This document shows, piece by piece, positions 10,324 to 64,000 of a stretch of DNA of 64,000 bases. The stretch is from assembly GCA_964471235.1 (NCBI GenBank), contig CAYYGL010000001.1, forward strand, positions 5,315 through 69,314. The letters run 5' to 3'. This DNA comes from an uncultured Calditrichaceae bacterium. Lineage in GTDB: Bacteria; Calditrichota; Calditrichia; RBG-13-44-9; J075. The notes beneath the pieces were generated by a model, which made no database searches, was not told the DNA's origin, and was given only the letters and a program-made list of their open reading frames with translations. Numbering within the stretch: the first letter of the stretch is position 1; every line of letters begins with the position of its first letter. The position numbers and the translations under genes are program-made.

Positions 10324-10634
10324 TTCTCCTCCCTTTTCAGAAATCTATCCATTAAAAGAGATCATCCAACACATTTGTCACATGGTGTTAAACTCAATTC
10401 GTCCCTGATTTCATCAATACCTACTGCAACTATTAAACCATAACTAAGCATCCATAAGAATTTATCCGAACCCATGACCTCTTTTACAGGTTTCGCAATA
10501 CAAATGGGTATAGAACAGGGATGACTCGGAGGAGACGCGGTATCACTAAAATGACAATTATTTGAAAAAGTACCGAAAATCTGTACGTTCCACTTTTTAT
10601 TCTTAATGCACTGCTTATCAAGTTTTTACCTGTT

Positions 10635-11924: not shown

Positions 11925-12021
11925 ATTGACCTTACCCGGTTAGTTGTAAGTTTCACAAATCATTTGTCTTACCTGTTTTAATTGACCCGCAACGCACAGC
12001 AAAAAAGAATACCTCCTCTCT

Positions 12022-26134: not shown

Positions 26135-26990
26135 AACAGTTTTAGACCCGGCGCTTACCCGGGAGAGCAAAAGTAGCTTTTTGTACTCCTTTTTTCTGTT
26201 ACCCAAAGAGAAACGTCGGGCAATCTACACACTTTATGCGTTTTGTCGTCAAACCGATGATATTGTTGACAACAACAACAGTCCCCTGGAAAAACGGCTC
26301 TGGTTGTTGAACCGCTGGGAAAAAGAGCTAAAGCGATGCTTTCTGAATCAGGTTTCCAACTACTTCGATTCCCTGCATCAGGTTGCCGAAGTTTTTAAAA
26401 TCCCATTTGAGTATTTTCTGGAGTTAATCGCCGGGGTACGGATGGATTTGACCGAAATCGGCTTTCGGTCTTTTGAAGACCTGAAACTGTATTGTTACCG
26501 GGTGGCTTCCATTGTTGGTTTAATGAGTATTGAAATTTTCGGTTACCGGGACCCCCAGATTAAACAATATGCGGAGAACCTGGGAATTGCCCTGCAGTTG
26601 ACCAATATCATCCGGGATGTCGGGGCGGATGCCCGGTTGGGGCGAATCTATATTCCCGAGGAAGACCTGGAACGATTTGCAGTGACAAAAGCCGAGATCA
26701 TGAATAAACGCTATAGCGACCGGTTTTATCAACTGATGAGTTTTCAATCCCGGCGGGCACGCAAGTATTACCAACTGGCAGAAGCGTATCTGCCCGGTTC
26801 GGAAAAGCTGAACATGCTGGTTTCCGAAATCATGAAAAACATTTACTGGCGCTTGTTAAACAAAATTGAAGCGGAACAATACAAAGTGCTGGATAGACGA
26901 CTATCGGTCTCCACCACTTCAAAAGTCTGGATTACCCTCCGCACGGTTTCCAAAATTAAGTTGGATAAAATGTTAGGAGAAGTCAGCTAA
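26100..26990 (+). CDS. hpnD: Squalene/phytoene synthase family enzyme, HpnD/CrtB-like (second tandem paralogue)
   Basis: YAFCRQTDDIVD and NIIRDVGADARLGRIYIPEED Asp-rich motifs. Its start overlaps the upstream paralogue by 35 nt. Confidence 0.7.
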   Translation: MERLKKRGVMNETVLDPALTRESKSSFLYSFFLLPKEKRRAIYTLYAFCRQTDDIVDNNNSPLEKRLWLLNRWEKELKRCFLNQVSNYFDSLHQVAEVFKIPFEYFLELIAGVRMDLTEIGFRSFEDLKLYCYRVASIVGLMSIEIFGYRDPQIKQYAENLGIALQLTNIIRDVGADARLGRIYIPEEDLERFAVTKAEIMNKRYSDRFYQLMSFQSRRARKYYQLAEAYLPGSEKLNMLVSEIMKNIYWRLLNKIEAEQYKVLDRRLSVSTTSKVWITLRTVSKIKLDKMLGEVS

Positions 26991-26991
26991 G

Positions 26992-28326
26992 ATGGCATCC
27001 GGTCGGGTGTTAATAGTCGGGGGAGGCGTTGCCGGCATCAGTGCCGCGGTTGCCGCCATCCGGAAAGGGCTGCAGCCGGTGTTGGTGGAAAAGAATCGTA
27101 CCCTGGGCGGCAGAGCCCGTTCCCTGTACGCCCGGGATATCCGCCGCACCATTGACAATGGGCAGCATGCCCTCTCCTACAATTATCAGCACACCCGCTG
27201 GTTATTGGCCACTCTGAATTCTCTTGAACGGATCCATTTTCAAAAGCGGCTGGAAATCCGTTTTTACCTGTCGCATCACCGTCGAATCCACTTTCGGGTC
27301 TGGAATTTACCGGTACCGTTTCATCTGCTCCTTCCGCTGTTTCTTCTTCTCCCCCTGACCCCGGCAGACCGAAAATTTTTGGTGCGCTGGGGGTGGATGA
27401 ACCGAAATCTGTCTGAATATCAACTGAAATCCATGACGGCAAGGGAATGGCTATACCAGGCAGGAGATGCCCCGGTGTTGGAACAAGTATTCTGGACGCC
27501 CCTGACGCTGGCAGCGCTGAACACGCCAATCGAAAACGCCAGCGCCCTTCTGCTGTACCGTGCGTTGCGGCAGGGATTTTTAAGCGGAGCTGCCCGGAGC
27601 GGTTTGGGGTTGCCGACAGATATGCTTGGTGAAATTTTTGCCAACCCTGCCGCACAGTTTATCCGCTCCCGGGGCGGATAGGTATTAACCGGCACTGCGA
27701 TAAAAAAAATAAATTCCGCCAACGGCAGAGTGGTTAGCGCCACAACCGGGCAGGGGAAAGTGCTAAACGCCAGGCACTTCGTTCTGGCAACCTCCCCCTC
27801 CGCCCTGGTAAAAATTCTTCACCGGAGTGAGACAGGGGAGGAAAAATGGTGGAAACCGTTTTCTAAATTCCAATATTCCCCGATTATTACCATAAATTTT
27901 TGGACCCGGGAGCCGCTTCCCGCCGGACCCCCCATTGCCCTGGTAAATTCGCCATTGCAGTGGATATTTCCAATACCCAACCACGATAAACCCGGAGAAG
28001 GATATGGCTATACCGGGGTTATCAGCGCCGCATTCCGTGAAGTAGATTGGGGAAGAGAAACACTATTGGAGATGATAGACCGGGAGTTTGTTCGGTTTTT
28101 TAAACGAAGCCTGGTAACGGATTTCCACCTGATCGAGAGCAAAATTATCAAAGAAAAAACCGCCACCATCCTGCAAACACCGGATTCGCTACGATTGCGC
28201 CCCGGCGGAGTCACGCCTTATCCCAATCTGGTATTGGCAGGAGATTGGCTGGATACCGGTCTGCCGGCAACTATCGAAAGTGCGGTGCAAAGCGGCAGAG
28301 AGGCAATTGATAAATTAACCGCATGA
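26992..28326 (+). pseudogene. hpnE: HpnE-like FAD-dependent amine-oxidase family oxidoreductase (hydroxysqualene dehydroxylase-like) interrupted by a single in-frame TAG at 27679-27681
   Basis: N-terminal dinucleotide fold VLIVGGGVAGISAA...VEKNRTLGGRARS. The reading frame continues unchanged through the TAG (…FIRSRGG*VLTGTAIKKINSANGRVVSATTGQ…) to 28326. Combined length is ~445 aa, as expected for HpnE. Confidence 0.7.
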
Positions 28327-31203: not shown

Positions 31204-31752
31204 CTATTCCTCACTTTCGTCTAAATATTTTCCCGGGTTGCGATTAAAATCCTCGGATTTGCCTTTTGGAATACTCAACGACTCCCAGGCGTCGCCGGTA
31301 AAGTGTTTCGCCAGGAAAACGATTTGTCCCACATGGTAAGCATAGTGAGAGAGCTGTCGAAGCAGCGCCTGGCTAACCAACAGCGGCTCCCCGCGAATGG
31401 TGATGGTACGGCTTAAATCCGCTGGCGTCAATGTTTCCAGGGTATTGGTTAGAATTTGCCATCCGGTTTCCCATTGCTTATGGAGGTTGTTAAAATCATC
31501 ATCTTGGGTAATTTCAAACTCCATATCCCGGTGACGATCCGGCTTCTCACCGTCGGTAGTAAGAAAATCGCGCCAGCGGGATCGCATATTGCCGGCAAGG
31601 TGTTTCATGATCACCGCAATCGAATTGGATACCTCCTCATTCAGGGAGTCGAACATCTCTTCAGTGTTTACCTGGGATATCGCTCCATCTGCCAGTTGAC
31701 GCAGCCGGGAAAATTCCCGACGAATATCGGTTAAGAATTGCTCCAGATTCAT
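31204..31752 (-). CDS. DinB-like/DUF1572 family protein, translationally coupled to the upstream helicase
   Basis: HYAYHVGQIVFL C-terminal motif, as in the 20367 paralogue. Its ATG overlaps the helicase TGA (ATGA) at 31749-31752. Confidence 0.55.
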   Translation of the reverse strand: MNLEQFLTDIRREFSRLRQLADGAISQVNTEEMFDSLNEEVSNSIAVIMKHLAGNMRSRWRDFLTTDGEKPDRHRDMEFEITQDDDFNNLHKQWETGWQILTNTLETLTPADLSRTITIRGEPLLVSQALLRQLSHYAYHVGQIVFLAKHFTGDAWESLSIPKGKSEDFNRNPGKYLDESEE

Positions 31753-34121
31753 ATTTTACCTCCGGTTGGTTTGTCGATAACGGGCAGGGATTTCCGTTTG
31801 TGCAGGGGCACTCCCTGCGAGTGAAATATCGTTATCTGTTGTGTATTGAATTCCAGCAAATAGTGTTGAATGATTAATTCCGCAAGATGTTGAATTCTTT
31901 CCACATCGGAAAAAGTGTTGATAGTCAACTGTTCCGGTAGGGCATAAATTTTTTGCCCGTCGGCTTTTAATATTTTTGGCAAAATCTCCGGATGGATAAT
32001 GAGATGATACAACTGCTGGGCAGATTTAAAGCGCAGTGTTTCCAGGTAAAGGCGATCCCAATCCACCACATCCCAGATATCTTTGTTGACAGCGACCGGT
32101 TTTGCACGGGATACTCCGGAGTTTCCTACTCCCTCTGATGTGATTTGTGAAAAAACCGGACGGATATCAACCCGGAGCTTTTTCAGGATGTTATTGTTCA
32201 CGGAAACTTCTACTGCCGGTGCGTTCCCGTTTTCTGAAGAAACAGGTGGTGTTATTGCCGGCTCCAAAGCAGGTGTGGAGGATGTGCCGGGTCGATCCGT
32301 TCGCTTATCTCTTCCGTTTGTCTGAATCCCTTCTTTGACAATGGCGTTCAAAAAGGCGTTCATATAATCTGCGTTCAGTCCGTAAATATAAAGTGTTTGT
32401 AAGCAGGCGATTTCCGGGCGGGCAGTGGCTTCTCTCCTCAGAGAAAAATCTTTTCCTTTCAGGCGAACCCCTCTACCGAATAGCTGAATAATCTGGGGAC
32501 CTTCTCCTTTTCCCATGTTCATCAATACCATGGTCGAGACCCGCCAGCTATTCCACCCTTCGATAAATTTTTTTGCACCGATAAGCAGGTTGATGGGAGA
32601 ACGGGCAGTATTGATATCCTCAAACAGGGAGGCGGAAAAGTAATCCGGTTTCACCTCGATTCCATTGCTTGCCAGCAGTTTTTTGAGCGGCGCAACATTT
32701 CCAACATGGATAATGCCGAAATAATTCCCGGCTCCGTTGGTTTTCAATCCTAATTCTCCATCGCCATGTAAAATTTCGTAAACTTCAAGTTCCCCGCTCC
32801 CATGAAATACCAGCCGGAATAACTTCTCCTGTTGTGCCTGCCGATCATCCGCTGGGGAATTAAGCAAGTCACCCACAGGGAGATTTGCCGGTATCGCCGA
32901 TAGAATCCATTGGATGTGTTCCCATAATCGCCCCGGATCATGAAGAATTTTTTTCGGGGACATCGTGATTGAGAGGATGTCGGAATCCTGCTTTTTTCCC
33001 GCCACCCGGCTGCCCACAAACACCCAGAGAGGTTTCTCAAGCTGGTAAGTGTTTATATCGATTTCTCCGGACTGAAAAAGGGAAAGCTGCCGGTAAAAGG
33101 TTGACAGTGCCCCGGACAGCACCCCCTGTTGCACTTCCGGTGTGTAGTGATCTTTATGAAGGTTCACCGCCTGGAACGCCTTGCCATACCTGTCTTCATA
33201 GAAAAAACGGTAAGAAAAATCAAAAATAATGGATTTGGCATATTCCGAGAGTAGAAAGCTATTCTTGCCGATTACCTGGGCAAAAGTAGCACTGTATTCG
33301 ATAATTATGCCCTGGGTTGCCAGTTTTTCCCGCAGGGTCTTCCAGCGTTTTTCCTCGGATTTCTGCCCCTTATGCCCCTCATCGATGAAAATGAGGTTTT
33401 TCCCTTCAAAAGCCGCGACATCCACCCTTACCCCGCCGGAAAGTTTTTGGTCCATCAACTTGTGAATGTCGATGACCAATACCTCATTTCGGCGGGTATA
33501 AAGGTTGTCCGGGTTGCCGTCATATAACTTTGCTGGTATGCCGCTCAGTTGATACTCCTGCCAGTGTTGACGGGACATACCTTCGTTTGGGGTGATCAGC
33601 AAAATATTATCCCAGGTGAAAGGGGTATAGTGCAGCACCTGCCAGTAGTTGATGTGCATAATCAAAGTTTTACCGCTGCCGGTTGCCATCCAGTAGGCAA
33701 TTTTGTGTAGGTCCGGTTCATGAAATGGCGGAATTGACTGCGAATGACGTCGATTAAATTCTTCTAAAAACAAATTTAAGTCGGATAAAAAGCCGGAGAC
33801 ATCGGTAAACAACCGGTCAAAATAGATTTCGCTGAACAGGGCTGCCAACTGCTGGAAGTATTTCAATCGGAATTGGGGTTGTTGACGATTGGCGCGCAGA
33901 CGGGATTGGTAGGAGTCAATCGATTGTTGGTAGTTGAATAATTTTTCCGGTGATAGTTTAGAACGCCCGCTTTGTTGTAAAGCATCCCAGAACGTATCAT
34001 GGAACTTAACGGATGAAACAGGGGAGGGGAGAGGGAGTATTGCTCTCAGGCGAGCAAACTCATCCACCCCGAGTAAATCCAGGAAAAAATGAAACAGGAC
34101 CAGGTGTTTTTGTAATTTCAT
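31749..34121 (-). CDS. SF2 helicase, ResIII-type (type III restriction Res-subunit-like) with DEGH box
   Basis: Motif I WMATGSGKT, motif II IFIDEGH, motif III YSATF, and motif VI QLFGRGVRL. It has a ~145-aa N-terminal and ~240-aa C-terminal extension without an obvious PD-(D/E)xK motif. Confidence 0.75.
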   Translation of the reverse strand: MKLQKHLVLFHFFLDLLGVDEFARLRAILPLPSPVSSVKFHDTFWDALQQSGRSKLSPEKLFNYQQSIDSYQSRLRANRQQPQFRLKYFQQLAALFSEIYFDRLFTDVSGFLSDLNLFLEEFNRRHSQSIPPFHEPDLHKIAYWMATGSGKTLIMHINYWQVLHYTPFTWDNILLITPNEGMSRQHWQEYQLSGIPAKLYDGNPDNLYTRRNEVLVIDIHKLMDQKLSGGVRVDVAAFEGKNLIFIDEGHKGQKSEEKRWKTLREKLATQGIIIEYSATFAQVIGKNSFLLSEYAKSIIFDFSYRFFYEDRYGKAFQAVNLHKDHYTPEVQQGVLSGALSTFYRQLSLFQSGEIDINTYQLEKPLWVFVGSRVAGKKQDSDILSITMSPKKILHDPGRLWEHIQWILSAIPANLPVGDLLNSPADDRQAQQEKLFRLVFHGSGELEVYEILHGDGELGLKTNGAGNYFGIIHVGNVAPLKKLLASNGIEVKPDYFSASLFEDINTARSPINLLIGAKKFIEGWNSWRVSTMVLMNMGKGEGPQIIQLFGRGVRLKGKDFSLRREATARPEIACLQTLYIYGLNADYMNAFLNAIVKEGIQTNGRDKRTDRPGTSSTPALEPAITPPVSSENGNAPAVEVSVNNNILKKLRVDIRPVFSQITSEGVGNSGVSRAKPVAVNKDIWDVVDWDRLYLETLRFKSAQQLYHLIIHPEILPKILKADGQKIYALPEQLTINTFSDVERIQHLAELIIQHYLLEFNTQQITIFHSQGVPLHKRKSLPVIDKPTGGKI

Positions 34122-43094: not shown

Positions 43095-45806
43095 TCAAAA
43101 CACAGGCTGACTGCTTTCTTTCATCACTCCTTCAATACTCTCCACACCCGCTAAAGCACAATCGCCATTGATAAAAACACGCCTGTCGGAATATTCCCGG
43201 AGAATGTCGGTAAGAAACTGTTTCTCTGCCTCATAATCCAGGTTGTCTGCCACACGCCAGATTGTGACAACCGGCTGTTCTTGCAGTTTCCCGGTTACAA
43301 ATAAATATCGACGGTTCTGATGGGGGCGAGCAAACACCTGTTCCACCTCTATCCCCAGCCAATTTACAAATGTTTGCACCAGGTCGATTGTGGCGGTTGA
43401 GGAACCCCCGGCGCGGAACAAATTCAACTTGTATTCAAACGGATTGCGCATTCGGTTGATATTCAAAAACGTTGGGCTTTGCCGGGTCTCGCTGGAGAGC
43501 ATATACCGGACGGTGTAGTCCGGCAACTCAGTTAACATGTTCGAAGAATTGCCAAATGTTATGTTTTCAAGCGCATCTTCAAATTGTTCCAATCCCTGGT
43601 AACAGAAAAACCCGCCGCCTTCCCATCCTAAATCCCGGGAAATTTTTCCCGGATCGCCATGCAGCACTTTTTTCATTCGCGGTAAGATGACCGAGTAAAA
43701 ATGCTCTCCCATCTCCACCCCCACCCATTTTCGTTTCATTTTCTGCGCTACGGCAATCGTAGTGCCGGAACCCAGGAAGAAATCCATCACCCATTCCCCG
43801 GGCATGGTGGAAGATTCTATCACACGTTGCAGTAAGGCTTCGGCATTTTCGGTGGCAAAATGATGCCGTTGGGCATACCCGGGAATGTCCAACCACTCAT
43901 TGCCGACCATCTCGCTATCATATAACAACTCCGGCACTCCTTTTATCGTATTCCCGAAGCAATCCACATAACTTTTTTCCGGGTTGATACGCACTTTATT
44001 GCGGGCGATCAGCCGGTCGATTCGCTGCTGAGAAAGCGCCCAGCGGCGGTTCCGCGGGGGATAATAGGTTCTTCCCAGTATTTTCCGGGGACGCTCATCC
44101 TTGCGGGGAAAATGGAGCAGAGGGTACCAGCGCGGGGGGGTCGGGCGTTCCACCGGGTTCGGCTTAAACCGGGGGGATTTGGCATATAAAAACAGAGTCT
44201 CGGTTTTCACGGTAAACTGGGTATCCACCTGCTGTTTTGCCAGGGTGCGATTCACGATAATCTCATTGCGGAAATTATCTTTCCCGAAAAGACGGTCCAA
44301 CATCAAACGGGCATACATGGTTCCATTGTAGTCGCAACGCAGAAACAAGCAGCCATCGGACCGCAGTGATGAATGAGCCAGACTTACCCGGTTCTCCAAC
44401 ATGGTTATCCAGGTGGAATCTTTATACCCCACTTTATACAGGTAATCCGCTTCCTGTTCTTTATTAAAGGGGGGATCAATATAGATGCATTTGATTTTCT
44501 CTTTCAAAAGCGGTGAAATGGTATTTAAGGCAGTCCAGTTTTCACTGTTCCATACGTAACCATCAATGATGTCGGCTAACCGATGGTTTGCTGATAGTCC
44601 TTCCAAAAGCTTTACCTTAAACGACTCATCGAAGAAACGGGTATCAATCGGAAGGTGCTGCCATGTTGGTTGATATAGCAACATTTCCAGTGTTTCCCGT
44701 ACCTCGCTGTCGAAGTGAAAACCGAATAAATCCCGCCATTCCCTTAATTGTGCTGTATTATCGGCAAGCTGTTCTACCACCCACCCCCACAGGTCATTGC
44801 CAGCATAGTGTTGAATGTGGCTGAGGCTGATGACATAATCTGTGCTGAGCACGAAACTTCTTTTCTCCCAGACCTGTTTTTGAAAATCCTCGATTTGCCC
44901 CAGCATTTCAATGACTTTAGCAGCAATGGTATGTACGATCGTTGCCAGATGAAGTTGATAGCGAAGATTGCTCTCGGTCAGAGTGGGGAAATTGTCAAAA
45001 TTGAAAATCTCGGATTTGATATAAAAATCCAATTCGGTTATCAGAAAATTTGCCAGATCCTTGTGGATGAAATAATCCTGTTCATTTTTTCGGGTAAAAC
45101 GGGATAAGTGCTCCGCCAATGTTCTCAGGAAATCATCCGCTACATTGCCGGGTAGGGGGAGTTGGGGGAGTGAGTTTCGAAAAGCTTCCAGAACAGAGGC
45201 ATTGATGTGTTTCTGGGTGATTTTTCCGAAATGCTCCCTCTCCGCTTCTTTCGGGGATCGAAATTCAAAGTAAAAATGAAGTTGGTTTTCCTGAATTTCC
45301 CATGCCGGCCGGGAAAGGAAAAAATATTGTTTATGAGTGCTTTTTATGTTCCCATGAAAAGCCTCTGCCTGCACGATCCGAAATGAGATTTCCCATCCAT
45401 CGTGGGTAAAGCGGTAGCTCTGGAAAAACGGGCTGGATTTAATAAAATACTGATCGTGATTGATCCAGTAGAAGGCAATTTCTTCCCCGTTATAAGGCAG
45501 GATGTACTTATGTTTTTTGCCATAACGCCGTTGGGGAATAAAATCTCCCCCATGATAATAGCGAGAGAAAAAACGAATGAGGTGATTGTAGACCTCGCCC
45601 TCCGGTTCAGCAGCTTTCGGGGCGTCCCGGGTGAGTTTCGGTAAATGCTCCTGAATAAATCCAACCAGATCCTGATTGATAAAGCGCAGAATTTCTTCCC
45701 GCCGATAGCGGATGATTCGATAGATTCCGAAATCCAGATCCGGTTCATTCAGATAGAAAAGGGATTGCAACAGGTTCAAAAATTGTTCTCGGAGAGGTTC
45801 GCTCAT
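43095..45806 (-). CDS. Beta-class N6-adenine/N4-cytosine DNA methyltransferase (type III Mod-like) with 440-aa N-terminal extension of unknown function
   Basis: Motif IV IYIDPPF precedes motif I WVMDFFLGSGTT (beta permutation), with ~240 aa between them as a putative TRD. The N-terminal 440 aa have no recognised motif. 903 aa. Confidence 0.8.
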   Translation of the reverse strand: MSEPLREQFLNLLQSLFYLNEPDLDFGIYRIIRYRREEILRFINQDLVGFIQEHLPKLTRDAPKAAEPEGEVYNHLIRFFSRYYHGGDFIPQRRYGKKHKYILPYNGEEIAFYWINHDQYFIKSSPFFQSYRFTHDGWEISFRIVQAEAFHGNIKSTHKQYFFLSRPAWEIQENQLHFYFEFRSPKEAEREHFGKITQKHINASVLEAFRNSLPQLPLPGNVADDFLRTLAEHLSRFTRKNEQDYFIHKDLANFLITELDFYIKSEIFNFDNFPTLTESNLRYQLHLATIVHTIAAKVIEMLGQIEDFQKQVWEKRSFVLSTDYVISLSHIQHYAGNDLWGWVVEQLADNTAQLREWRDLFGFHFDSEVRETLEMLLYQPTWQHLPIDTRFFDESFKVKLLEGLSANHRLADIIDGYVWNSENWTALNTISPLLKEKIKCIYIDPPFNKEQEADYLYKVGYKDSTWITMLENRVSLAHSSLRSDGCLFLRCDYNGTMYARLMLDRLFGKDNFRNEIIVNRTLAKQQVDTQFTVKTETLFLYAKSPRFKPNPVERPTPPRWYPLLHFPRKDERPRKILGRTYYPPRNRRWALSQQRIDRLIARNKVRINPEKSYVDCFGNTIKGVPELLYDSEMVGNEWLDIPGYAQRHHFATENAEALLQRVIESSTMPGEWVMDFFLGSGTTIAVAQKMKRKWVGVEMGEHFYSVILPRMKKVLHGDPGKISRDLGWEGGGFFCYQGLEQFEDALENITFGNSSNMLTELPDYTVRYMLSSETRQSPTFLNINRMRNPFEYKLNLFRAGGSSTATIDLVQTFVNWLGIEVEQVFARPHQNRRYLFVTGKLQEQPVVTIWRVADNLDYEAEKQFLTDILREYSDRRVFINGDCALAGVESIEGVMKESSQPVF

Positions 45807-55943: not shown

Positions 55944-56100
55944 TCTTTTTCTCCTGAGTTAAAATGTTGGTTCTCGTTTTTTCAGTAATTCTGTGTTCAG
56001 TGTTCCGTTGTAAGCGCAAGGTGATGAAGTTATGTTCATCAGAGGTTCTTGCGCTATAGAAGTGGGGGGACAGAAGGTTGCCCATCTGTTCCTGGGAAGC

Positions 56101-56772
56101 TTAAACAAACAACGCTTTCAACTCCCCGGCTTCCCGGATATAAAAATCAGCCTTCAATTTTCTCAGAACTTCTGATGGTCTGAAGCCGTATTCCACCGCA
56201 CAGGTGATGACTCCGGCAGCTTTCCCGGCAAGAATATCGGTATCCCCATCACCAATAATGACGGCTTTTTCCGCCGGAACCGTTAGTTGTTGCAAAATGT
56301 GGAGGATGCCATCCGGTTCCGGTTTTAAAGCAATCCCGGAATGTCCACCGATAATCAGATCAAAAAAATGATCCAGGTTCAGTTGTTTTAAAATCGGTTC
56401 ACTGTATTCAATCGGTTTATTGGTTAGAACGGCTTTCGTTTTTCCGGAGAAATATGCTAACACCTCCGGAATGCCCGGGTAGGGGCGGGTGTGATCCGTC
56501 AGATGATCAGCATAATACAGGCGAAACAGGCTTTTTGCTTCCTGCAGTTCTCCATCGGAAGGATTTTGAAGGGCGTATTGGAGGAATTTATTTAACCCTT
56601 CTCCCACATACCTCCGTACCTGCGGCAGGGTTAACGTTGGTCTGTTTAACTGCTGTAAAGCAAAATTGACGGCATTGGCAAGGTCCTCAAGGGTATCTAC
56701 CAGGGTGCCGTCCAGATCGAAAATCAATAATTTGACCGGTATGGGAACAGGCATCGGGGATAGAGCATCCAT
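56101..56772 (-). CDS. HAD-family phosphatase (phosphoglycolate-phosphatase-like)
   Basis: LLIFDLDGTLVDT motif I, TNK motif, and GDGDTD motif IV. Confidence 0.8.
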   Translation of the reverse strand: MDALSPMPVPIPVKLLIFDLDGTLVDTLEDLANAVNFALQQLNRPTLTLPQVRRYVGEGLNKFLQYALQNPSDGELQEAKSLFRLYYADHLTDHTRPYPGIPEVLAYFSGKTKAVLTNKPIEYSEPILKQLNLDHFFDLIIGGHSGIALKPEPDGILHILQQLTVPAEKAVIIGDGDTDILAGKAAGVITCAVEYGFRPSEVLRKLKADFYIREAGELKALFV

Positions 56773-56837
56773 ATATTCTCCTTACATAAGAACAAAAAGC
56801 ATCGAAAAAGGTGAAGCAGTTAACAGACATCGATCTC

Positions 56838-58619
56838 TCACAGGTAAAAATAATAAATTAAAACAATCGCAACAACCCCGGTTATAAACTGTAAGGGAAC
56901 TCCTATTTTCAGAAAATCTTTGAAGCGATACCCACCGGCGCCGTAGACCATTAAGTTGGTCTGGTAGCTGATGGGGGTGGCAAAACTGGCAGCTGCGGCA
57001 ATCACCACGGTAATGGCGAAGGCATGGGGGTCGGCACCAACGGTTTTAGCTGCCGAGTAGGCAATGGGGAAGAGGAGGGCAGCCGTGGCATTGCTGGTAA
57101 TCACCACATTGTAGAAGCTGGTCAGGATGTAAATGCCAATCACCACCCCCAGAATACCGGTGCCGGCGCTCATCTCCACTATCAGTCCGGCAAATTCCCG
57201 GGCTAAGCCGGATTTTTCCACCGCCCGGGCAATTCCCAGGGAAAGGGCAATGATAATCAGTACTCGCCAATCCACCGTGCTGCGCGCTTCGGAAGGTGTG
57301 ACGGTTCGGGTGGTGATTAACACCACCACGCCGGCACCAATGGCAGCCAGCAGGGGAAGTACTTTCAGTATTGCCAATGTTAGACTAAGCAGGAACACTC
57401 CCAGGGACAAATAGGCTTGCCAGACCGGTTTGGAAGGAATGGATTCTGCGCCGGCAATCAGGTAAAAGTCATTGGAATGATACCAGCGGTTCCGGAAGGA
57501 TTTATCCGCCAAAACCAGCAGAGTATCTCCGGCTTTTAATACAATATCACCCACTTTCTGTTGAATCCGTTCCCCATGACGGTGAATGGCAATTATCACT
57601 GCTTCATATTTTTTACGGAAGTTGCTATCCCGCACCGTTTTCCCCACCAATGGAGAACCGGGTGAGATGACGCATTCAAAGGTCTTGATCTTGGAAGAAT
57701 CATACTGTTTGAGATCGAAATGAGAATCTTTGGTTAAACGAAGACCGGGGGTTTTCTGCAATTCCAGGATGGTTTCCGGCACTCCGGTAAAAAATAGTCG
57801 GTCTCCCAGTCGTATTTCTTCATCCGGGCTGGCTGGAGCAATGATATGCCCGTTGCGTTCAATCTGGAACAAAAATAACCCCTTTAAGTGACGCAATCCG
57901 GCTTGTTGGATTGTTTTTCCGATTTGTTCATATTTGGATGTCACTTTCAATTCGATCACAAATTCCCGGGTCTGTTCTCCCAACTCCACCAGGTGTTCCT
58001 TCTTCTCCGGCAGCAAACGATATCCAATGAAACTGATAAACAGAATACCGACAATTGCTACCGGAATACCGACTTTGGAAATTTCAAAGAGACTCATCCC
58101 TTCCATGCCGTATTCAATCATCAGCCCGTGAACGATCAACGTCGTGCTGGTACCGATCAGGGTACAAACACCGCCTAAAATCGCTGCATAAGAGATGGGA
58201 ATCAGGTATTTGGACGGGGCATGATTATTTTTGATAGACCAGGAACGGATTGCCGGAATCAACATTGCCACCACCGGCGTGTTGTTCATAAAAGCAGAGA
58301 TAGCCGAAACCGGGAAAAGAATCCGCAGTAATTTTCGGGAAACGGAGGAATTGTTGGTGCCAAACAGGGCGGAGGTGAGGTTCTTCAGGATACCGGAATT
58401 GTGCAGTGCTCCGGCAAAAATAAATAAAAGTGCAATGGTCAACATCCCCGGATTCGAGAAACCGGAGAATGCTTCCTGAACCGTGATGACATTGCCAATT
58501 ACCAACAGCAGCAGAGTTGAGAACACCACAATTTCAATCTCCAGCCATTCCTTGATTAAAAAAATGCTCATCAACACCAATAATGCTGCTGTAAACCAGA
58601 GGTCAAAGTTTGCTGTCAT
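56838..58619 (-). CDS. SLC13/DASS-family anion permease with two central TrkA-C domains (putative sulfate transporter)
   Basis: Two TM bundles flank two TrkA_C-like soluble repeats. It is located at the end of the sat-cysC locus. Confidence 0.75.
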   Translation of the reverse strand: MTANFDLWFTAALLVLMSIFLIKEWLEIEIVVFSTLLLLVIGNVITVQEAFSGFSNPGMLTIALLFIFAGALHNSGILKNLTSALFGTNNSSVSRKLLRILFPVSAISAFMNNTPVVAMLIPAIRSWSIKNNHAPSKYLIPISYAAILGGVCTLIGTSTTLIVHGLMIEYGMEGMSLFEISKVGIPVAIVGILFISFIGYRLLPEKKEHLVELGEQTREFVIELKVTSKYEQIGKTIQQAGLRHLKGLFLFQIERNGHIIAPASPDEEIRLGDRLFFTGVPETILELQKTPGLRLTKDSHFDLKQYDSSKIKTFECVISPGSPLVGKTVRDSNFRKKYEAVIIAIHRHGERIQQKVGDIVLKAGDTLLVLADKSFRNRWYHSNDFYLIAGAESIPSKPVWQAYLSLGVFLLSLTLAILKVLPLLAAIGAGVVVLITTRTVTPSEARSTVDWRVLIIIALSLGIARAVEKSGLAREFAGLIVEMSAGTGILGVVIGIYILTSFYNVVITSNATAALLFPIAYSAAKTVGADPHAFAITVVIAAAASFATPISYQTNLMVYGAGGYRFKDFLKIGVPLQFITGVVAIVLIYYFYL

Positions 58620-58842
58620 TGCATTGGAAGACCGTTCGTAGTGGTGACGTTGACGTTAGAAAAGCATAGGGGGAGGTAGGGGATAAGGGAAAGTCGGAAT
58701 GCCTGATTTGATATCCCGAATTCCCTTTTTTCAGATATTCAACACTCCACCATTAGGGACTTCTATAGATTCATCCCCGAATCCCTTCTTATGAATTCCC
58801 TATACCCTTATACCTGATCCCCATATACTTCCCCCCCCCTCT

Positions 58843-59996
58843 TTATGCCCGGTTTTTCATGGCTTCCATCAAAATTTTGGCTACTTCCGGGCGGGTGAAT
58901 TCTTTCGGAGGCAATTCCCCGCGGCGGAGCATTTCCCGCACCTTGGTGCCGCTCAGAAACACATGGGAGCTGCTGTCATGGGGGCAGGTTTTGGCGCTTG
59001 CCATGTTGCCGCAGGTAGTGCAAAAAAAGGCATGTTCAAAGAAGAGGGGAGTAATATCCAATTCTTCCCGGGTAAACTCTTTGAAAATGTGCTGCGCATC
59101 GTAGGTGCCGTAATAGCTCCCCACACCGGCATGATCCCGTCCGATAATAATATGGGTGCAACCGTAATTTTTACGCACCAGAGCATGGAAAATAGCTTCC
59201 CGGGGACCGGCATAGCGCATGGCAGCCGGAAATACCGATAACATATAACGCCCTTCCGGGTAATAATGCTTGAGCAATTCCAGGTAGCTTTGCATTCGGA
59301 TTTCCGCCGGGATATCATCGGATTTGGTTCTGCCACCAGCGGGTGAATTAATAAACCGTCCACTATCTCCAGGGCGCATTTCTGAAGGTACTCATGGGCA
59401 CGATGAATGGGATTGCGGGTTTGAAAGGCAACGATGGTTTCCCAGCCTTTCTTCTCAAATGCTTTCCGGGTAGCTGCCGGCTCCAATCGATAATCCAAAA
59501 AATCCTCATGTGCCGGACGATTGAGCATGGTGATTTCCCCGCCTACCAGGTGCTCACCTTGCGAATATACATAAGCGACGCCGGGATGATTTTCATCTGT
59601 CGTTCGGTAGACCTTCTCCGCTTCATGTTCTTTGTTGTAAGTGTAGATATCTTCTACCTGCATTGTTGCCAGAATATTCCCCGCCGCATCCTTCAGGGCA
59701 ATTTCTTCCCGGTTTTGGATGGATTCTTTTGCCGCATCATCAATCGCCAGGGTGATAGGAATGCTCCATGCCAGACCGTTTTTCAGGTGCATGGTATCTA
59801 CTACCGATTGATAATCATCCTGCTTCATAAAGCCGGTCAGGGGGCTCATTGCGCCGCTGGCAATCATCTCCAGATCGGAGATGTTTTTGTCATCTAACTG
59901 CAATGCGGGCAATTGGGATGCTTTCTCCAAAAGCGATTGCCGCTCCGATTCCGCAGCATATTGATTAATTAATGTTCCGCCATGTGGTAATATCAC
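58843..59996 (-). pseudogene. sat: Sulfate adenylyltransferase (single-chain ATP sulfurylase) with a -1 frameshift near 59331-59340
   Basis: Frame A gives the N-terminal 225 aa, including [11 protein letters not shown] and …LLIHPLV. Frame B continues with [14 protein letters not shown]…GRDHAGVG… to the stop at 58843. The junction CTGGTGGCAGAACC is consistent with loss of one G from a G-run. Confidence 0.8.
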
Positions 59997-60026
59997 AATA
60001 TTTCTCCTTTCAAATTTAAAGTAACC

Positions 60027-60890
60027 CTATGCTGTTAATGTTTGTTTTCGCTCTAAAAGGTTTCGGTAAATTGTATCGGGTACATTGAACTTCCGGTGCT
60101 TCCCATATCCAAGTTGAATGTCGGGTTTAACCGTCCCGTGGAAATCGGTTCCGCCGGAAATCACCAGGTCCGCTTCATGTGCCAACTCAATCAGTGCGGT
60201 ATGAAACTCAGCAGGCATCTCCGGGTAAAATGCCTCCACCCCATCTAATCCCATCTCTTTTAGTTGCAAAATCTTTTTGCGTGTATCGGCAAAGGTGGCA
60301 AAGTTCATATAATGGGGATGCGCCAGAATTGCCAGTCCTTCCGCAGAATGGATCAATTGAATCGTTTCCGCCTCACTAAGCTTTACCTTCTCTATATACG
60401 CCGGTTTTCCTTTGCTGAGAAACCGATCAAAGGCTTCCTGTACCGAATTGACGACGCGGTGTTTCATTAAGACCCGGGCGACATGAGGTCTTCCAATCGA
60501 TCCTTCCCCGACTTCTGCCATCAATTCTGACAGGGTTACCGGAATTCCCAGCGAATTCAGGGCATCTACCATCTTGCGCGCCCGTTCACTGCGATGTTTC
60601 ACCAGAAATGCCAGCTTCTCATTCAGTTCCCGACTCCGGTGATTGATGAATAAACCCAGGATATGAATATGACCATTCCCGGGGAGTTTGCTATCAACAC
60701 TAATTTCCACTCCGGGAACCGTGGGTACCTGCATCTCCTTTCCGTAACGGATAAACTCATCCAGCCCCCCGGTGGTATCATGGTCAGTAAGGGCGATAGC
60801 GCTTAAACCGATTTGAGCCGCGGCTTGAATCAGTTGTAAGGGGCTAAAGGTACCGTCTGAGTATGAACTATGAGTGTGCAGGTCGACCAT
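60027..60890 (-). CDS. PHP-domain phosphoesterase (putative 3'-phosphoadenosine-5'-phosphate phosphatase)
   Basis: MVDLHTHSSYSDG PHP N-terminal motif, 287 aa. It is positioned between sat and cysC. Confidence 0.7.
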   Translation of the reverse strand: MVDLHTHSSYSDGTFSPLQLIQAAAQIGLSAIALTDHDTTGGLDEFIRYGKEMQVPTVPGVEISVDSKLPGNGHIHILGLFINHRSRELNEKLAFLVKHRSERARKMVDALNSLGIPVTLSELMAEVGEGSIGRPHVARVLMKHRVVNSVQEAFDRFLSKGKPAYIEKVKLSEAETIQLIHSAEGLAILAHPHYMNFATFADTRKKILQLKEMGLDGVEAFYPEMPAEFHTALIELAHEADLVISGGTDFHGTVKPDIQLGYGKHRKFNVPDTIYRNLLERKQTLTA

Positions 60891-60951
60891 TCTTTAATCC
60901 AGGTAGTGATGTCAAGGAACAGAAAAGTGATTTTTTAACGGACCGGAAAGG

Positions 60952-61608
60952 TTATACGTTGACTGTGGTTGGTTCCGATTCGTTCTTGCTAATGTTCAAA
61001 TAACCATGCGATAACAGATAATCCACCACTTTACGAGCATTTTCCCGGGCATCGGTATTCACACCGGTGTTGATTACCAACTCCGGATTGTTCGGGGCTT
61101 CATACGGGGCGGATATGCCGGTAAACTCCGGAATTTCACCGGCACGGGCTTTTTTATACAATCCCTTGGGATCGCGCTGTTCACAAACTTCCAGATCACA
61201 TTCCACATAAACCTCAATAAATTGACCGTCATCCAGCAATTCCCGAACCTTATCCCGGTCTTTCCGGTAGGGAGAAATGAATGCCGTCATTACGATCATT
61301 CCGGCATCTACAAACAGTTTGGCAACTTCCCCAATCCGCCGAATGTTCTCTTCTCGATCTTCCGGGGAAAATCCCAGGTCTTTATTCAATCCATGCCGGA
61401 TATTATCACCATCCAGCACGTAGGTATGTGCGCCCATTTCATAAAGGATATTTTGAGCTTCTACTGCCAGGGTGGATTTGCCGCTGCCGGATAACCCGGT
61501 AAACCAGATGCACACCCCACGGTGCTTGTTGAGACGTTCCCGGTCTTCCCGTTTAATATCGCCTTCGTGCCAGTGAATATTGGTTGCCTTCTGTTTCATC
61601 AGTCTCAT
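60952..61608 (-). CDS. cysC: Adenylyl-sulfate (APS) kinase
   Basis: [17 protein letters not shown]-loop and the APS kinase fold, in 218 aa. Confidence 0.9.
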
Positions 61609-61714
61609 TTCCTTTGTTTGATAAGTGTCTGTTGGATTTAATTTCTAAATCATTGTGAGTTAGGGTTATTTTTTCGTGTCAAGCTTGATAGTTAATGAGA
61701 GTCGTGCCCGGGCG

Positions 61715-62659
61715 TTATGGGGTGATTTGATATTTCTGTCGATACCATTCAATGGTTTTCTTCAATCCTTCTTCAAAAAATACTTTCGGTTGATATCCCA
61801 GGGTGGTTTTGAGTCGTTCGATATCGGCAAAAGAATGTTTGATATCGCCCGGGCGCGGATCGGTATAAACCGGTTGAATATTTTTGCCAACAATTTCGTT
61901 AATCAGTTTCACCAATTGATTCAGATTGATGCGTTGGTGCACCGCACAATTCATTACAATGCCCGGGGGGCAATCCACTTCGGTTGCCAGGATGTTCGCT
62001 TCGATGGTGTTGTCCACATACGTAAAATCCCGGCTCTGTTCGCCGTCTCCGTAGATCACCGGTGATTGATCCAGCAAAATGGCTTTGATGAATTTGGGTA
62101 TCACTGCGGAATATTGGGAATTGGGATTCTGGCGAGGACCAAATACATTGAAATAACGCAAAGCGATTGTATGAAGTCCATAGATATTGGCAAAAACCTG
62201 GGCATATTTTTCTCCGGCGAGCTTGGAAACAGCATAAGGGGAGAGAGGATTAACCGGCATATCTTCTTGTTTCGGTAATTTGGGGCTGTCACCGTAAACC
62301 GATGAAGAAGATGCAATGACGACCCGTTTGATACCGGCATCCCTGGCAGCATACAGCACATTCAGGGTACCGGAAACGTTTACTTCATTCGAGGAGATCG
62401 GATCTTGAATAGAGCGGGGCACAGAAGGCAGCGCCGCCTGATGAAGCACAAAATCCATTCCCTCGGATGCTTCCCGCACATTATGGTAATTTCTTAAATC
62501 TCCTTCGATAATTTCAATTCGATCGGCAATTTCTGCCAAATTCTCCCGGCTGCCAGTGGAAAAATTATCCAATACTCGAACCGTATGACCTCGCTTCAAT
62601 AATTCAATACAGATGTTGGATCCAATGAACCCCGCACCTCCCGTTACTAAATATTTCAT
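61715..62659 (-). CDS. NAD-dependent sugar-nucleotide epimerase/dehydratase (UDP-glucuronate/UDP-glucose 4-epimerase-like)
   Basis: VTGGAGFIGSN and the YxxxK catalytic motif (YAVSKLAGE), in 314 aa. Confidence 0.85.
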   Translation of the reverse strand: MKYLVTGGAGFIGSNICIELLKRGHTVRVLDNFSTGSRENLAEIADRIEIIEGDLRNYHNVREASEGMDFVLHQAALPSVPRSIQDPISSNEVNVSGTLNVLYAARDAGIKRVVIASSSSVYGDSPKLPKQEDMPVNPLSPYAVSKLAGEKYAQVFANIYGLHTIALRYFNVFGPRQNPNSQYSAVIPKFIKAILLDQSPVIYGDGEQSRDFTYVDNTIEANILATEVDCPPGIVMNCAVHQRINLNQLVKLINEIVGKNIQPVYTDPRPGDIKHSFADIERLKTTLGYQPKVFFEEGLKKTIEWYRQKYQITP

Positions 62660-62693
62660 GGATTCACTCCGTGCTCAAATTTAACCATTTCAT

Positions 62694-63206
62694 TCACAGT
62701 TCCGCTACGGTTGCTTCGGCTTCAATTTTCTTAACAAAGTATTTATCGACCACAAAGCTGGCAGATTGATAAATTCCATCGATTAAAATAGCTATGCGGG
62801 ATTCTCCCCGTTTCTCTCTCAGGTATCCCCGTACTCCCTTTAATGGTCCTTCCACCACTTCTACATAATCACCAACCTTCAAATACTCTTCCGGTTGTAT
62901 CGACGTGCCTTCCTGCAAAATTTTATTTAGCTGCTCAATTTGCCAGTCCGGAATGACGGCCGGAACGCCCCCAAAACTGACCATTCTCACCACTCCATGG
63001 GTCTGCAATGCCTGCAGGCGATCCTTCAAATCAATATTGACAAATACATAACCGGAAAACAGAGGCATTTCCACCCATTTTTTACGGTCTTTCCATTTCC
63101 GGAGCTGTTTGGTTAATGGCAAAAAGGATTCGACTCGTTTTTCCACTAATTGCTGGTAAACTGTCTTCTCGTGGCGCGGTCGAACATATAAAGCATACCA
63201 TGCCAT
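62694..63206 (-). CDS. NusG-paralogue transcription antiterminator (UpxY/LoaP-like; NGN + KOW)
   Basis: WYALYVRPRHEK NGN start and a KOW-like GDYVEVVEGPLKGVRG, in 170 aa. It is the first gene of the epimerase–cysC–PHP–sat–permease operon, preceded by a ~430-bp leader. Confidence 0.7.
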   Translation of the reverse strand: MAWYALYVRPRHEKTVYQQLVEKRVESFLPLTKQLRKWKDRKKWVEMPLFSGYVFVNIDLKDRLQALQTHGVVRMVSFGGVPAVIPDWQIEQLNKILQEGTSIQPEEYLKVGDYVEVVEGPLKGVRGYLREKRGESRIAILIDGIYQSASFVVDKYFVKKIEAEATVAEL

Positions 63207-63608
63207 ATTGTTCCCCTCATGCTAATTGGTTTAGTACATTTTTCGTTTAACAATATATCGGTCATTTTAACCCGGAATCAACCAAAATGATTGAGTTTGA
63301 GCAGAGTTTGTTCCATCGGGTGAGCGACAGCTCCTTTATCACCGGCTGTTGTTTGGAGAAACATCCGGGTAAAAATCTCTCCCCTGAAATCCCTCATCCT
63401 AAATTAAAAGACCATTCTCACATTAAAGAACACTTAATTTAAGCACAGATTTTCTGAAATCCGTGATAATTAACAAATTTTTGCAAGGAGTAAGTTTTAA
63501 CCGATTGTCGTTCTACATTTTTTTTACCACAAGCTTTACCAGTTTCAGGTTGCCAGGTGAGAAAATGTTGAAAAAATGACTTGCTATGGAAGCCGTTTTT
63601 CTATATAC

Positions 63609-63624
63609 TTGAACAGTTGTTCAA
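63609..63624. promoter_or_regulatory. Perfect 7-2-7 palindrome TTGAACA-GT-TGTTCAA ~20 nt upstream of the ArsR-family gene (candidate autoregulatory operator overlapping a TATATA -10-like element)
   Basis: The sequence was read directly. ArsR/SmtB repressors typically bind inverted repeats overlapping their own promoter. Confidence 0.4.
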
Positions 63625-63642
63625 ATGTTAAAGTGAGAAAAC

Positions 63643-64000
63643 ATGGCAAGTAAAACAAACGACGTCTGTTCGGTAACCGCCGTCAATTACGAAAAAGTGA
63701 ATGCGGTTCGGAAACAACTTCCGCAAAGTAGCGAAATTCAAGCTCTCTCGGACACATTCAAAGTGTTGGGCGATCCCACTCGCCTGAAGATTGTGCTGGC
63801 ACTGGCAAAGGAAGAATTATGCGTGTGTGATCTGGCAACGCTGATTGGTCTTTCCGTTTCGGCCATCTCCCATCAACTGCGGTTGCTGCGCAATATGCGG
63901 CTGGTGAGATTTCGCAAGGAAGGAAAGATGGTTTATTACGCCCTGGATGATCAACATATTGAGACCATCATCGGGGAAGCTCAAACGCACGTGAGAGAGT
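63643..64000 (+). CDS. ArsR/SmtB-family transcriptional regulator (3' end beyond window)
   Basis: FKVLGDPTRLKIVLAL…ELCVCDLATLIGLSVSAISHQLRLLR is a canonical ArsR wHTH with the Cys pair. Confidence 0.8.
   Translation, partial: MASKTNDVCSVTAVNYEKVNAVRKQLPQSSEIQALSDTFKVLGDPTRLKIVLALAKEELCVCDLATLIGLSVSAISHQLRLLRNMRLVRFRKEGKMVYYALDDQHIETIIGEAQTHVRE

Follow-up and report, generated by a model that had tools for sequence, protein, structure and literature searches.

Does an operon that activates sulfate beside its own NusG paralogue supply 3'-phosphoadenosine 5'-phosphosulfate (PAPS) for the sulfation of a glycan, or for the synthesis of cysteine? The question is raised by a locus near one end of a 64,000-nt stretch of DNA from an uncultured Calditrichaceae bacterium (contig CAYYGL010000001.1, positions 5,315 to 69,314), hereafter the window. 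Six co-directional genes run on the minus strand from position 63206 down to 56838, with spacers of 34, 105, 61, 30 and 223 nt, and encode in this order a UpxY-family NusG paralogue, a WbpP-like UDP-sugar epimerase, adenylyl-sulfate (APS) kinase (CysC), a PHP-family phosphoesterase, ATP sulfurylase (Sat) and a DASS-type anion permease. All six were found by the open reading frame (ORF) list and profile searches on the strand and at the places given in a preliminary description of this DNA. Profile matches and synteny also bore out its account of a PAPS-supply module linked to a UDP-sugar epimerase, with a UpxY-family NusG paralogue at the head. The identities of its gene set held; sat, however, is not a single ORF and lies in two overlapping frames. 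On comparative grounds, PAPS for sulfation rather than for cysteine synthesis appears to be the best-supported reading. We consider it probable, with moderate confidence, that the locus is a Calditrichota version of a polysaccharide-associated PAPS-supply operon under a locus-linked UpxY-family NusG paralogue. In this strain the module is detached from any glycan cluster, and it may be inactive.

The sulfate-activation block and its neighbours in Calditrichota

Gene identities were taken from profile searches (Pfam and NCBIfam) and from sequence matches in the PDB. Relatives were collected by a genome scan with a UpxY alignment, which gave 80 loci, nearly all from Calditrichota, and by a metagenome scan that added 32. 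About 120 related loci (L numbers below) were compared: the window proteins were mapped onto them and all flank ORFs were clustered by BLAST. Recurrent flank clusters and a sample of the rest were annotated by Pfam and NCBIfam, a screen that was not exhaustive, and many relative contigs end early, so that gene-presence counts are lower bounds.

The block is far beyond a chance association, and its gene order recurs across many Calditrichota genomes. The order UpxY-epimerase-CysC-PHP-Sat, with or without the permease, or the variant epimerase-UpxY-CysC-PHP-Sat, was found at L008-L010, L012-L015, L017, L020, L023-L028, L030, L036 and L125. At loci whose UpxY is at least 60% identical to that of the window (group A), an epimerase orthologue (at least 60% identity) lies in the flank in 34 of 37 cases, adjoining upxY in the mapped loci, and at least one sulfate gene is present in 22 of the 37. 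With UpxY at 48-60% identity, sulfate genes accompany it at 20 of 26 loci and Wzc or UGDH at 13 of 26. Exceptions to the block were UpxY and epimerase only (L005, L022), UpxY-epimerase-PHP (L016, L018, L019) and an orphan upxY (L004, L011).

Linkage to capsule or exopolysaccharide (EPS) genes was seen directly in relatives. At L091 and L092 a WbpB/WbpD-like fusion and a DegT aminotransferase continue the block on its own strand. Another arrangement (group B, UpxY about 45-58% identical) reads LolA-CpsB-Wzc-UGDH-UGDH-PHP-PF01663 protein-UpxY; UpxY is followed by the permease and/or by APS-kinase-like-CysD-CysN-CysC, or by a convergent CysC-Sat pair, and then by GFO-, Hexapep- and DegT-type genes. 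The ATP-sulfurylase slot is filled by a Sat of 71-80% identity, by a Sat of 34-39% identity (L014, L026, L069, L070) or by CysD/CysN (CysD 356 bits against the NF003587 cutoff of 195; CysN 352 bits, cutoff 336). Since non-orthologous enzymes occupy this slot, it appears to be the function itself that is retained beside UpxY.

Other proteins recur in these loci. A protein of about 430 aa from the alkaline-phosphatase superfamily (PF01663 Phosphodiest, no equivalog) stands between PHP and upxY in 27 Calditrichota loci, sometimes duplicated (for example L037:8481-9812, L046:8644-9936, L039:8352-9990); it is absent from the window. Right after upxY, some loci encode a 240-aa protein (for example L057:3572-4294, L043:10806-11528, L071:10061-10786) with an N-terminal hydrophobic segment, taken here as a putative membrane anchor, and an APS-kinase-like P-loop domain (apsK 120 bits, below cutoff). 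After it come CysD, a CysN whose C-terminal kinase domain is degenerate, and a canonical CysC. The APS-kinase-like protein is thus an unusual addition in these loci, a second kinase-like protein besides CysC.

The reductive half of sulfate assimilation was looked for in both data sets. In the window, where all ORFs of at least 120 aa were translated and read and about 30 were scanned against Pfam, there was no cysH, cysDN, sir or sulfotransferase. Beside the block in the roughly 120 loci, the non-exhaustive screen of clustered flank ORFs recognised none of cysH, sir and cysK. Flank genes with a PAPS_reduct domain were considered as cysH and rejected: they are CysD by NF003587, and theirs is the only such family in the flanks. 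The earlier observation that no reductive assimilation genes lie nearby is therefore upheld for the window, and no cysH was recognised in the related loci.

Sulfotransferases were sought by a motif search on stop-to-stop ORFs within 10 kb on either side of the same loci. A clear case, L039:15481-16485, has the 5'-phosphosulfate-binding motif GLPRSGTTL and the 3'-phosphate-binding motif KRDILDSAIS. Its Pfam match is weak in the truncated form, and the full-length database form has PF13469 (Sulfotransfer_3) and PF00685. The locus begins LolA-CpsB-Wzc-UGDH, and the sulfotransferase is encoded on the strand of UpxY-DASS, about 5 kb further downstream. Orthologues are common in metagenome-assembled genomes of Calditrichota, one of them labelled Caldithrix abyssi; on that contig (L126) the gene lies between a PIG-L deacetylase, WbqC and DegT. 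PAPS-dependent sulfotransferases thus do occur in a polysaccharide context in Calditrichota. A literature search found no paper on sulfotransferases in Calditrichaeota.

Profile scores and PDB matches place the proteins of the block in families. CysC matched PF01583 (246 bits), NF003013 (307.4, cutoff 163) and TIGR00455 (281.7, cutoff 138.7), and so is an APS kinase by these models. The epimerase matched Pfam Epimerase (219 bits); its best PDB matches were the UDP-GlcNAc/GalNAc 4-epimerases WbpP (1sb8, 8e-85) and WbgU (3e-81), and its best NCBIfam model was TviC (299.6 bits, below the equivalog cutoff of 760). The permease matched CitMHS (213.6 bits, cutoff 31.9) and two TrkA_C domains, scored 130.9 against the TIGR00785 DASS cutoff of 198.6, and had VcINDY and the human Na/sulfate transporter SLC13A1 as distant PDB matches. 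In 16 loci an orthologue accompanies sat or UpxY, and the one at L092 also matches PF00939 (Na_sulph_symp); from the linkage to sat, its putative substrate is sulfate.

The PHP protein is a family-level relative only. It scored 181.4 bits against a cutoff of 400 for NF041577 (3',5'-nucleoside bisphosphate phosphatase) and 165 against 375 for RNase RNM, short of the equivalog assignment for a phosphatase of 3'-phosphoadenosine 5'-phosphate (pAp). PDB relatives were 3e0f, 9etk, 7ug9 (RNase AM) and 2yb1 (Cv1693). With Cv1693, a 3',5'-bisphosphonucleotidase of the PHP/amidohydrolase superfamily, and RNase AM/YciV it shares a COG0613-type PHP domain; the function here is predicted from gene position. 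The PHP gene lies between cysC and sat in the window and at L008-L010, L014, L015, L023, L026, L027 and L030, and it follows cysC on further contigs that end before sat. This position fits a CysQ-like role and makes the protein a probable pAp phosphatase. The minimal UpxY-epimerase-PHP sets at L016, L018 and L019 (about 10000-12600), which are without cysC and sat, tie the PHP protein more closely to UpxY and the epimerase than to the sulfate enzymes, and leave room for a role other than pAp hydrolysis.

In the working that we propose, transcription would start from a sigma70-type promoter about 45-75 bp upstream of upxY, and the UpxY-like protein, with its NGN domain and KOW barrel, would join the elongating RNA polymerase and make it processive through the downstream genes, as in Bacteroides UpxY. 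The DASS permease would import sulfate, Sat would form APS and CysC would convert it to PAPS. A PAPS-dependent sulfotransferase encoded elsewhere would then transfer sulfate onto a glycan, an acceptor that probably contains N-acetylgalactosamine (GalNAc) or its uronic acid (GalNAcA) from the WbpP-like epimerase, and the PHP enzyme would clear the inhibitory by-product pAp.

Both halves of this arrangement have precedents, in UpxY-led polysaccharide operons and in PAPS genes within capsular polysaccharide (CPS) clusters (PMC11641403). The co-occurrence of PAPS and sulfotransferase genes within one such cluster is described as a hallmark of the synthesis of sulfated polysaccharides (PMC11641403). 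The combination of PAPS genes, sulfotransferase and glycosyltransferase in one locus described in that work was not found in the window; we take it to occur only in relatives such as L039, where the sulfotransferase accompanies Wzc, UGDH, UpxY and DASS. Like the CPS locus of Vibrio sp. KMM 8419, with cysNDC and sulfotransferases (PMC11641403), the Calditrichota loci place sulfate-activation genes by a glycan locus without reductive genes. Assimilatory sat/cysDN-cysC-cysH operons share the first two enzymes and a sulfate transporter with the block; unlike them, neither the window nor the related loci examined had a recognisable cysH, sir or cysK. In rhizobia, NodPQ and NodH are a comparable case of extra PAPS-synthesis genes for sulfated glycans. 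In contrast to the Vibrio and rhizobial sets, the Calditrichota set adds a permease, a PHP-type pAp phosphatase (probable) and a NusG paralogue, and its sulfotransferase would lie outside the window. A further difference is that no sulfated product is known from Calditrichota. If the reading is right, Calditrichota would be added to the small number of bacterial groups whose genomes give evidence of sulfated polysaccharides, compounds that matter for the sediment pool of organic sulfur and are of biotechnological interest.

The UpxY-family regulator and its upstream region

The regulator belongs to the UpxY family, with 148.3 bits against NF033644 (cutoff 100) over residues 3-157. Pfam NusG (PF02357) gave 73 bits. 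The NCBIfam models of LoaP (63 bits), NusG (42) and RfaH (TIGR01955, 88 bits against a cutoff of 144.5) all scored below their cutoffs, and the protein is not an RfaH by this measure. RfaH was its best PDB sequence match (E 4e-11). An AlphaFold model (pLDDT 86.5, pTM 0.80) showed an NGN domain and a beta-barrel KOW domain, and matched NusG and RNA polymerase-bound RfaH. Orthologues occur at 60-75% identity across Calditrichota, apparently one per genome. In the window upxY heads the operon, ahead of a single nucleotide-sugar gene and the PAPS genes; in relatives it stands first (L091, L092), in the middle of large Wzc/UGDH...GFO/DegT loci, or as an orphan. No paper on NusG paralogues in Calditrichota was found in the literature.

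UpxY-family proteins bind elongating RNA polymerase and suppress pausing and termination (PMC7819879, PMC11685472). By analogy, the six genes are probably co-transcribed and the UpxY-like protein would act on them by antitermination. The Bacteroides UpxY/UpxZ capsular operons, as outlined in PMC11685472 and in the account of Chatzidaki-Livanis 2009 cited in PMC7819879, likewise place a paralogue matching the UpxY model beside presumed polysaccharide-related targets, and the targets in Calditrichota relatives also form large capsule/EPS loci. The two systems differ in host phylum (Calditrichota, not Bacteroidota) and in number: the Calditrichota factor is apparently single-copy at 60-75% identity phylum-wide, whereas Bacteroides has many divergent paralogues. 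The Calditrichota locus also has no UpxZ gene and no detected opsX, its immediate cargo is a PAPS-supply module, and no invertible promoter is apparent, although no dedicated search was made for one.

With proteobacterial RfaH, the nearest solved structure by sequence, the regulator shares the NGN and KOW plan, and both presumably occur as one factor per genome; in some Calditrichota relatives the gene is away from its targets. Unlike RfaH, the Calditrichota model has a beta-barrel KOW domain rather than an autoinhibitory alpha-hairpin, and the upstream region contains no ops. The ops-contacting residues of RfaH, which we take to be K10, H20, R23, Q24 and R73, correspond here to R, Q, E, K and H. 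If the regulator works as proposed, it would offer a simpler system for the study of operon choice by specialised NusG factors, with one paralogue and no UpxZ.

The preliminary description had placed a probable recruitment element in a leader of about 430 bp upstream of upxY. That stretch proved to be a shared divergent promoter region, with a conserved promoter close to upxY: it is the entire intergenic region up to the start codon of an ArsR/SmtB regulator gene on the plus strand. Footprinting of the region used a single relative, L125, which shares the synteny and has a UpxY of 92% identity; a metagenome scan for close relatives returned the window's own contig and relatives of at most 72% identity only. 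The window/L125 alignment gave three footprints: the palindrome TTGAACAACTGTTCAA, a block with TGCTTAAATT at 63445-63436, and a block at 63290-63245. Between them the two sequences differ by indels totalling about 50 nt. A 51-aa ORF called at 63287-63442 (+) was rejected, as these indels run across it.

The block at 63290-63245 is nearly identical in the two genomes and contains TTGATT-N18-TATATT, conserved base for base while its flanks diverge. This candidate promoter, about 45-75 bp upstream of upxY, was also found by a promoter scan. A start near 63245 would give a 5' untranslated region of about 38 nt with a GAGGGG Shine-Dalgarno sequence. Among 83 orthologous loci, 30 (10 expected, maximum 18) have the pattern TTGNNN-N16-18-TAnnWT no more than 150 nt from the UpxY start; in several of these TAAATT lies 35-46 nt upstream. 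An imperfect inverted repeat, TCAATC-N5-GGTTGA (63276-63292, minus strand), overlaps the candidate -35 box and is identical in L125; it may be a regulator-binding site.

At the other end of the region, TTGAACAACTGTTCAA is a perfect 16-bp palindrome 19 nt upstream of the arsR start. It resembles an ArsR-type operator and is probably one. In L001 (2390-5166) and L125, arsR is followed by an HMA-domain P-type ATPase and then a PIN toxin module. The arsR/P-type ATPase unit resembles a self-contained metal efflux system, divergent from and outside the sulfate module.

We consider it very unlikely that the whole stretch is a long structured 5' leader, whether a riboswitch or an ops-type element, that controls the operon. 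Bacteroides UpxY proteins do require leader elements (PMC11685472), and the second conserved block, with the extended -10-like TGCTTAAATT, could give a leader of about 230 nt. Against this, a scan of 56000-64000 gave no Rfam match at E<=1, the region folded no better than shuffled sequences (z-score +0.74), its upstream third is the promoter and operator of arsR, and the indels between the window and L125 fall within 63207-63642. On the sense strand of the operon no ops-like motif was found in 63207-63640: the E. coli ops GGCGGTAGnnTG is absent from the upstream region, where the sole ops-like match is antisense, with two mismatches and at chance frequency. The opsX of Bacteroides UpxY consists of a pause hairpin followed by a hairpin in the non-template DNA with the sequence YGCGNAGCR (PMC11685472). 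Its core GCGNAGC is missing from the sense strand of 63150-63660 even with one mismatch allowed, and the exact core occurs in 5 of 83 orthologous upstream regions (2.6 expected, maximum 7), which is chance level. Because class-2 opsX lacks the YGCGNAGCR hairpin, an element of another type is still conceivable. A k-mer search across the 83 upstream regions returned only AT-rich low-complexity words, the promoter-like hexamers being the only shared signal; an element TAAATTYWCCG is common to only five loci and absent from the window. With no Rfam family, ops or opsX motif, shared k-mer or excess structure, the leader idea is unsupported, and any recruitment site, if one exists, would be short or of an unfamiliar type. 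In annotation, the long region upstream of upxY should not be labelled as leader RNA.

The sat frameshift and the weight of the alternatives

The sat gene of the window is broken. Its product is encoded in two overlapping ORFs (58953-59996 and 58843-59379), the N-terminal frame ending at 58953; in PF01747, NF003166 and TIGR00339 the first aligns to the N-terminal half of the model and the second to the C-terminal half. The fragments scored 291 and 273 bits against the NF003166 cutoff of 387, so that no single intact ORF qualifies as Sat. Three-frame translation placed the frame change around ...LIHPLV|AEPNPMI..., and insertion of one base restored a 384-aa Sat with all the usual motifs. In a DNA alignment with four orthologues (L007-L010), one base was absent at the wobble position of a Val codon, at about 59333-59335 (window CTGGT-GGCAGA, L007 CTGGTTGGCAGA), and this missing base accounts for the two frames. 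The nearest orthologue, P0126 on L007, is intact, with 384 aa and 96% identity to the repaired window sequence. A programmed frameshift was considered and rejected: it would need a -1 shift at CTG GTG GCA, which holds no slippery heptamer and is therefore an unlikely site, and the relatives are plain in-frame genes.

The ENA assembly L001 matches the window at 99.98% identity, with two substitutions and no gaps across 8.8 kb, and carries the identical lesion (a truncated ORF of 347 aa, one residue different). The ratio of nonsynonymous to synonymous substitution rates (dN/dS) against the nearest relatives was 0.01-0.09 over all six genes: 0.04-0.09 for UpxY, epimerase, CysC, PHP and DASS, and 0.078 and 0.012 for the two sat segments, the lower value belonging to the part downstream of the lesion. 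Values this low mean that strong purifying selection has acted on the block, and that the lesion either arose very recently or is artefactual.

As sequenced, the operon cannot make APS unless a second ATP sulfurylase is encoded elsewhere, and the preliminary claim that it makes APS does not stand in that form. The proposal that its PAPS serves glycan sulfation and not cysteine synthesis gained from the linkage to Wzc, CpsB, UGDH and DegT in relatives and lost from the broken sat gene. Other observations also count against a working polysaccharide-associated PAPS-supply operon. Neither the 64-kb window nor the 5.6 kb beyond it contains a glycosyltransferase, a Wzx/Wzy/Wzc-type gene or a sulfotransferase: an earlier expectation was that a glycosyltransferase cluster might continue past the window, and what lies beyond position 64000 is arsR, the heavy-metal P-type ATPase and the PIN toxin module, so that no such cluster continues there. 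Within 10 kb of the roughly 120 loci, the gene at L039 was the only sulfotransferase found. For antitermination, no intrinsic terminator that the factor could override was predicted inside the operon, with no terminator-like site on the minus strand in any spacer, and the absence of ops and opsX bears in the same direction. A UpxZ-like second gene is missing from the 34 nt between upxY and the epimerase in the window, and from the corresponding gap in group-A loci. Of the UpxY orthologues, those nearest at species level, L011 and L004, stand as orphans among unrelated neighbours, which suggests that the factor may act in trans.

Several explanations could account for these points. The block could be the front half of ordinary PAPS-dependent assimilation, with cysH and sulfite reductase elsewhere and the adjacency of upxY and the epimerase incidental. 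Permease, sat, cysC and pAp phosphatase would be equally needed for assimilation via PAPS, the window copy has no polysaccharide genes nearby, and the evidence covers the window rather than the rest of the genome, where cysH and sir may lie; this last point also weighs on the sulfation reading. We nevertheless judge assimilation quite improbable. The non-exhaustive screen recognised no assimilatory partner beside the block, the sole PAPS_reduct family being CysD. The block is instead linked to UpxY, the WbpP-like epimerase, Wzc, CpsB, UGDH and DegT, and different types of ATP sulfurylase have been recruited to one slot in polysaccharide loci. It is possible, on balance doubtful, that the locus is a decaying relic in this strain, parted from its polysaccharide locus, with sat inactivated and no function remaining. 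Two assemblies, differing at two positions, both have the frameshift, glycan genes are absent within 57 kb on one side and 5.6 kb on the other, and the window contains a second disrupted gene, an hpnE with an in-frame TAG. However, the remaining five genes are intact with low dN/dS, and the ratio for the sat segment past the lesion is low too, so that any inactivation would be very recent; and L125 and L007 (92-96% identity) are equally detached, with their genes intact where visible.

The frameshift might also be an assembly or sequencing artefact, or a minor variant, in an operon that is fully functional, which we regard as rather unlikely. The missing base adjoins a short G run (GGTGG), the part of sat past the lesion has 98.8% protein identity to the L007 orthologue, again with the low dN/dS of that segment, and the window and L001 assemblies are not known to stem from independent samples. 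Set against these are the identical deletion in two assemblies from different pipelines, two substitutions apart over 8.8 kb, and the lack of any other gap between them. For annotation, sat should be recorded as frameshifted here, and only after a check of the reads should the locus be listed as a working pathway of sulfate activation. Building on the polysaccharide-associated reading, we tentatively suggest a wider scheme, which is more doubtful: a single phylum-wide NusG paralogue of Calditrichota, a phylum abundant in marine sediment, may be dedicated to a sulfated envelope or exopolysaccharide regulon and, by processive antitermination, may couple the supply of sulfate donor and UDP-GalNAc(A) to glycan assembly. 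It would be recruited via an element unlike ops or opsX, and the PF01663 protein and the membrane-anchored APS-kinase-like protein would be parts of the sulfation machinery.

Layout of the locus and further observations in the window

The features of the locus are collected in Table 1.

Table 1. Positions of the features at the sulfate-activation locus, in window coordinates.
Feature	Position	Strand	Description and basis
UpxY-family NusG paralogue	62694-63206	-	170 aa; NGN domain and KOW beta-barrel
WbpP/WbgU/TviC-like UDP-HexNAc(A) C4-epimerase (extended short-chain dehydrogenase/reductase)	61715-62659	-	314 aa; Pfam and PDB matches
cysC, adenylyl-sulfate (APS) kinase	60952-61608	-	PF01583, NF003013, TIGR00455
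PHP-family phosphoesterase, probable pAp phosphatase (CysQ analogue)	60027-60890	-	PF02811; position
sat, homo-oligomeric ATP sulfurylase, 1-nt deletion at about 59333-59335	58843-59996	-	Two ORFs
sat-permease spacer, G-rich arm then C-rich arm	58620-58842	-	Inverted repeats found
DASS/SLC13-type anion permease with two cytoplasmic TrkA_C domains, putative sulfate importer	56838-58619	-	
Candidate sigma70-type promoter TTGATT-N18-TATATT	63252-63281	-	Promoter scan; conserved in L125
Divergent intergenic region upxY/arsR (earlier 'leader')	63207-63642	none	
Perfect palindrome TTGAACAACTGTTCAA, probable ArsR/SmtB operator	63609-63624		Read from the sequence; one change in L125
ArsR/SmtB metalloregulator, continues past the window end	63643-64000	+	NF033788, 99 bits (cutoff 55)

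A HAD phosphatase and a transketolase lie downstream of the permease on the same strand, outside the block conserved in relatives. The arms of the sat-permease spacer could pair as a long imperfect hairpin (minimum free energy -66.5 kcal/mol) without a T-tract; the folding z-score of -0.35 against shuffled sequences is not significant. The corresponding spacer of the 96%-identical relative L007 (1322-1482) has the same layout, G-rich and then C-rich. The spacer might act in processing or stability, or attenuate weakly.

Elsewhere in the window, an hpnE-like FAD amine oxidase gene (26992-28326, +) is split by an in-frame TAG at 27679-27681 (...RSRGG*VLTGT...), its pieces mapping to positions 1-179 and 235-438 of the Pfam profile. 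It lies downstream of two intact squalene/phytoene-synthase genes (25241-26990). About 10 kb from these squalene (hpnCDE-like) genes, at 10635-15170 (-), are genes for an MMPL/RND-type exporter (787 aa), a LolA_like protein and a DUF1302 protein, possibly of the outer membrane; together the three may export a lipid (hopanoid?).

An orphan CpsB/CapC-type PHP tyrosine phosphatase (5441-6235, +; 196 bits) has no Wzc-type kinase nearby. A 676-aa fusion at 6471-8501 (+) joins a membrane-domain-like N-terminal region to a 4Fe-4S dicluster and two CCG (HdrD/DsrK-like) domains. A ResIII-domain helicase/nuclease and an N6/N4 DNA methylase, resembling a type III restriction-modification system, are encoded at 31749-34121 (-) and 43095-45806 (-). 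Between them lie a 1250-aa protein that by eye resembles a multi-GAF histidine kinase, a sigma-70-family-like protein and several ORFs without a Pfam match. This restriction-modification-flanked block may be an inserted defence or regulatory island.

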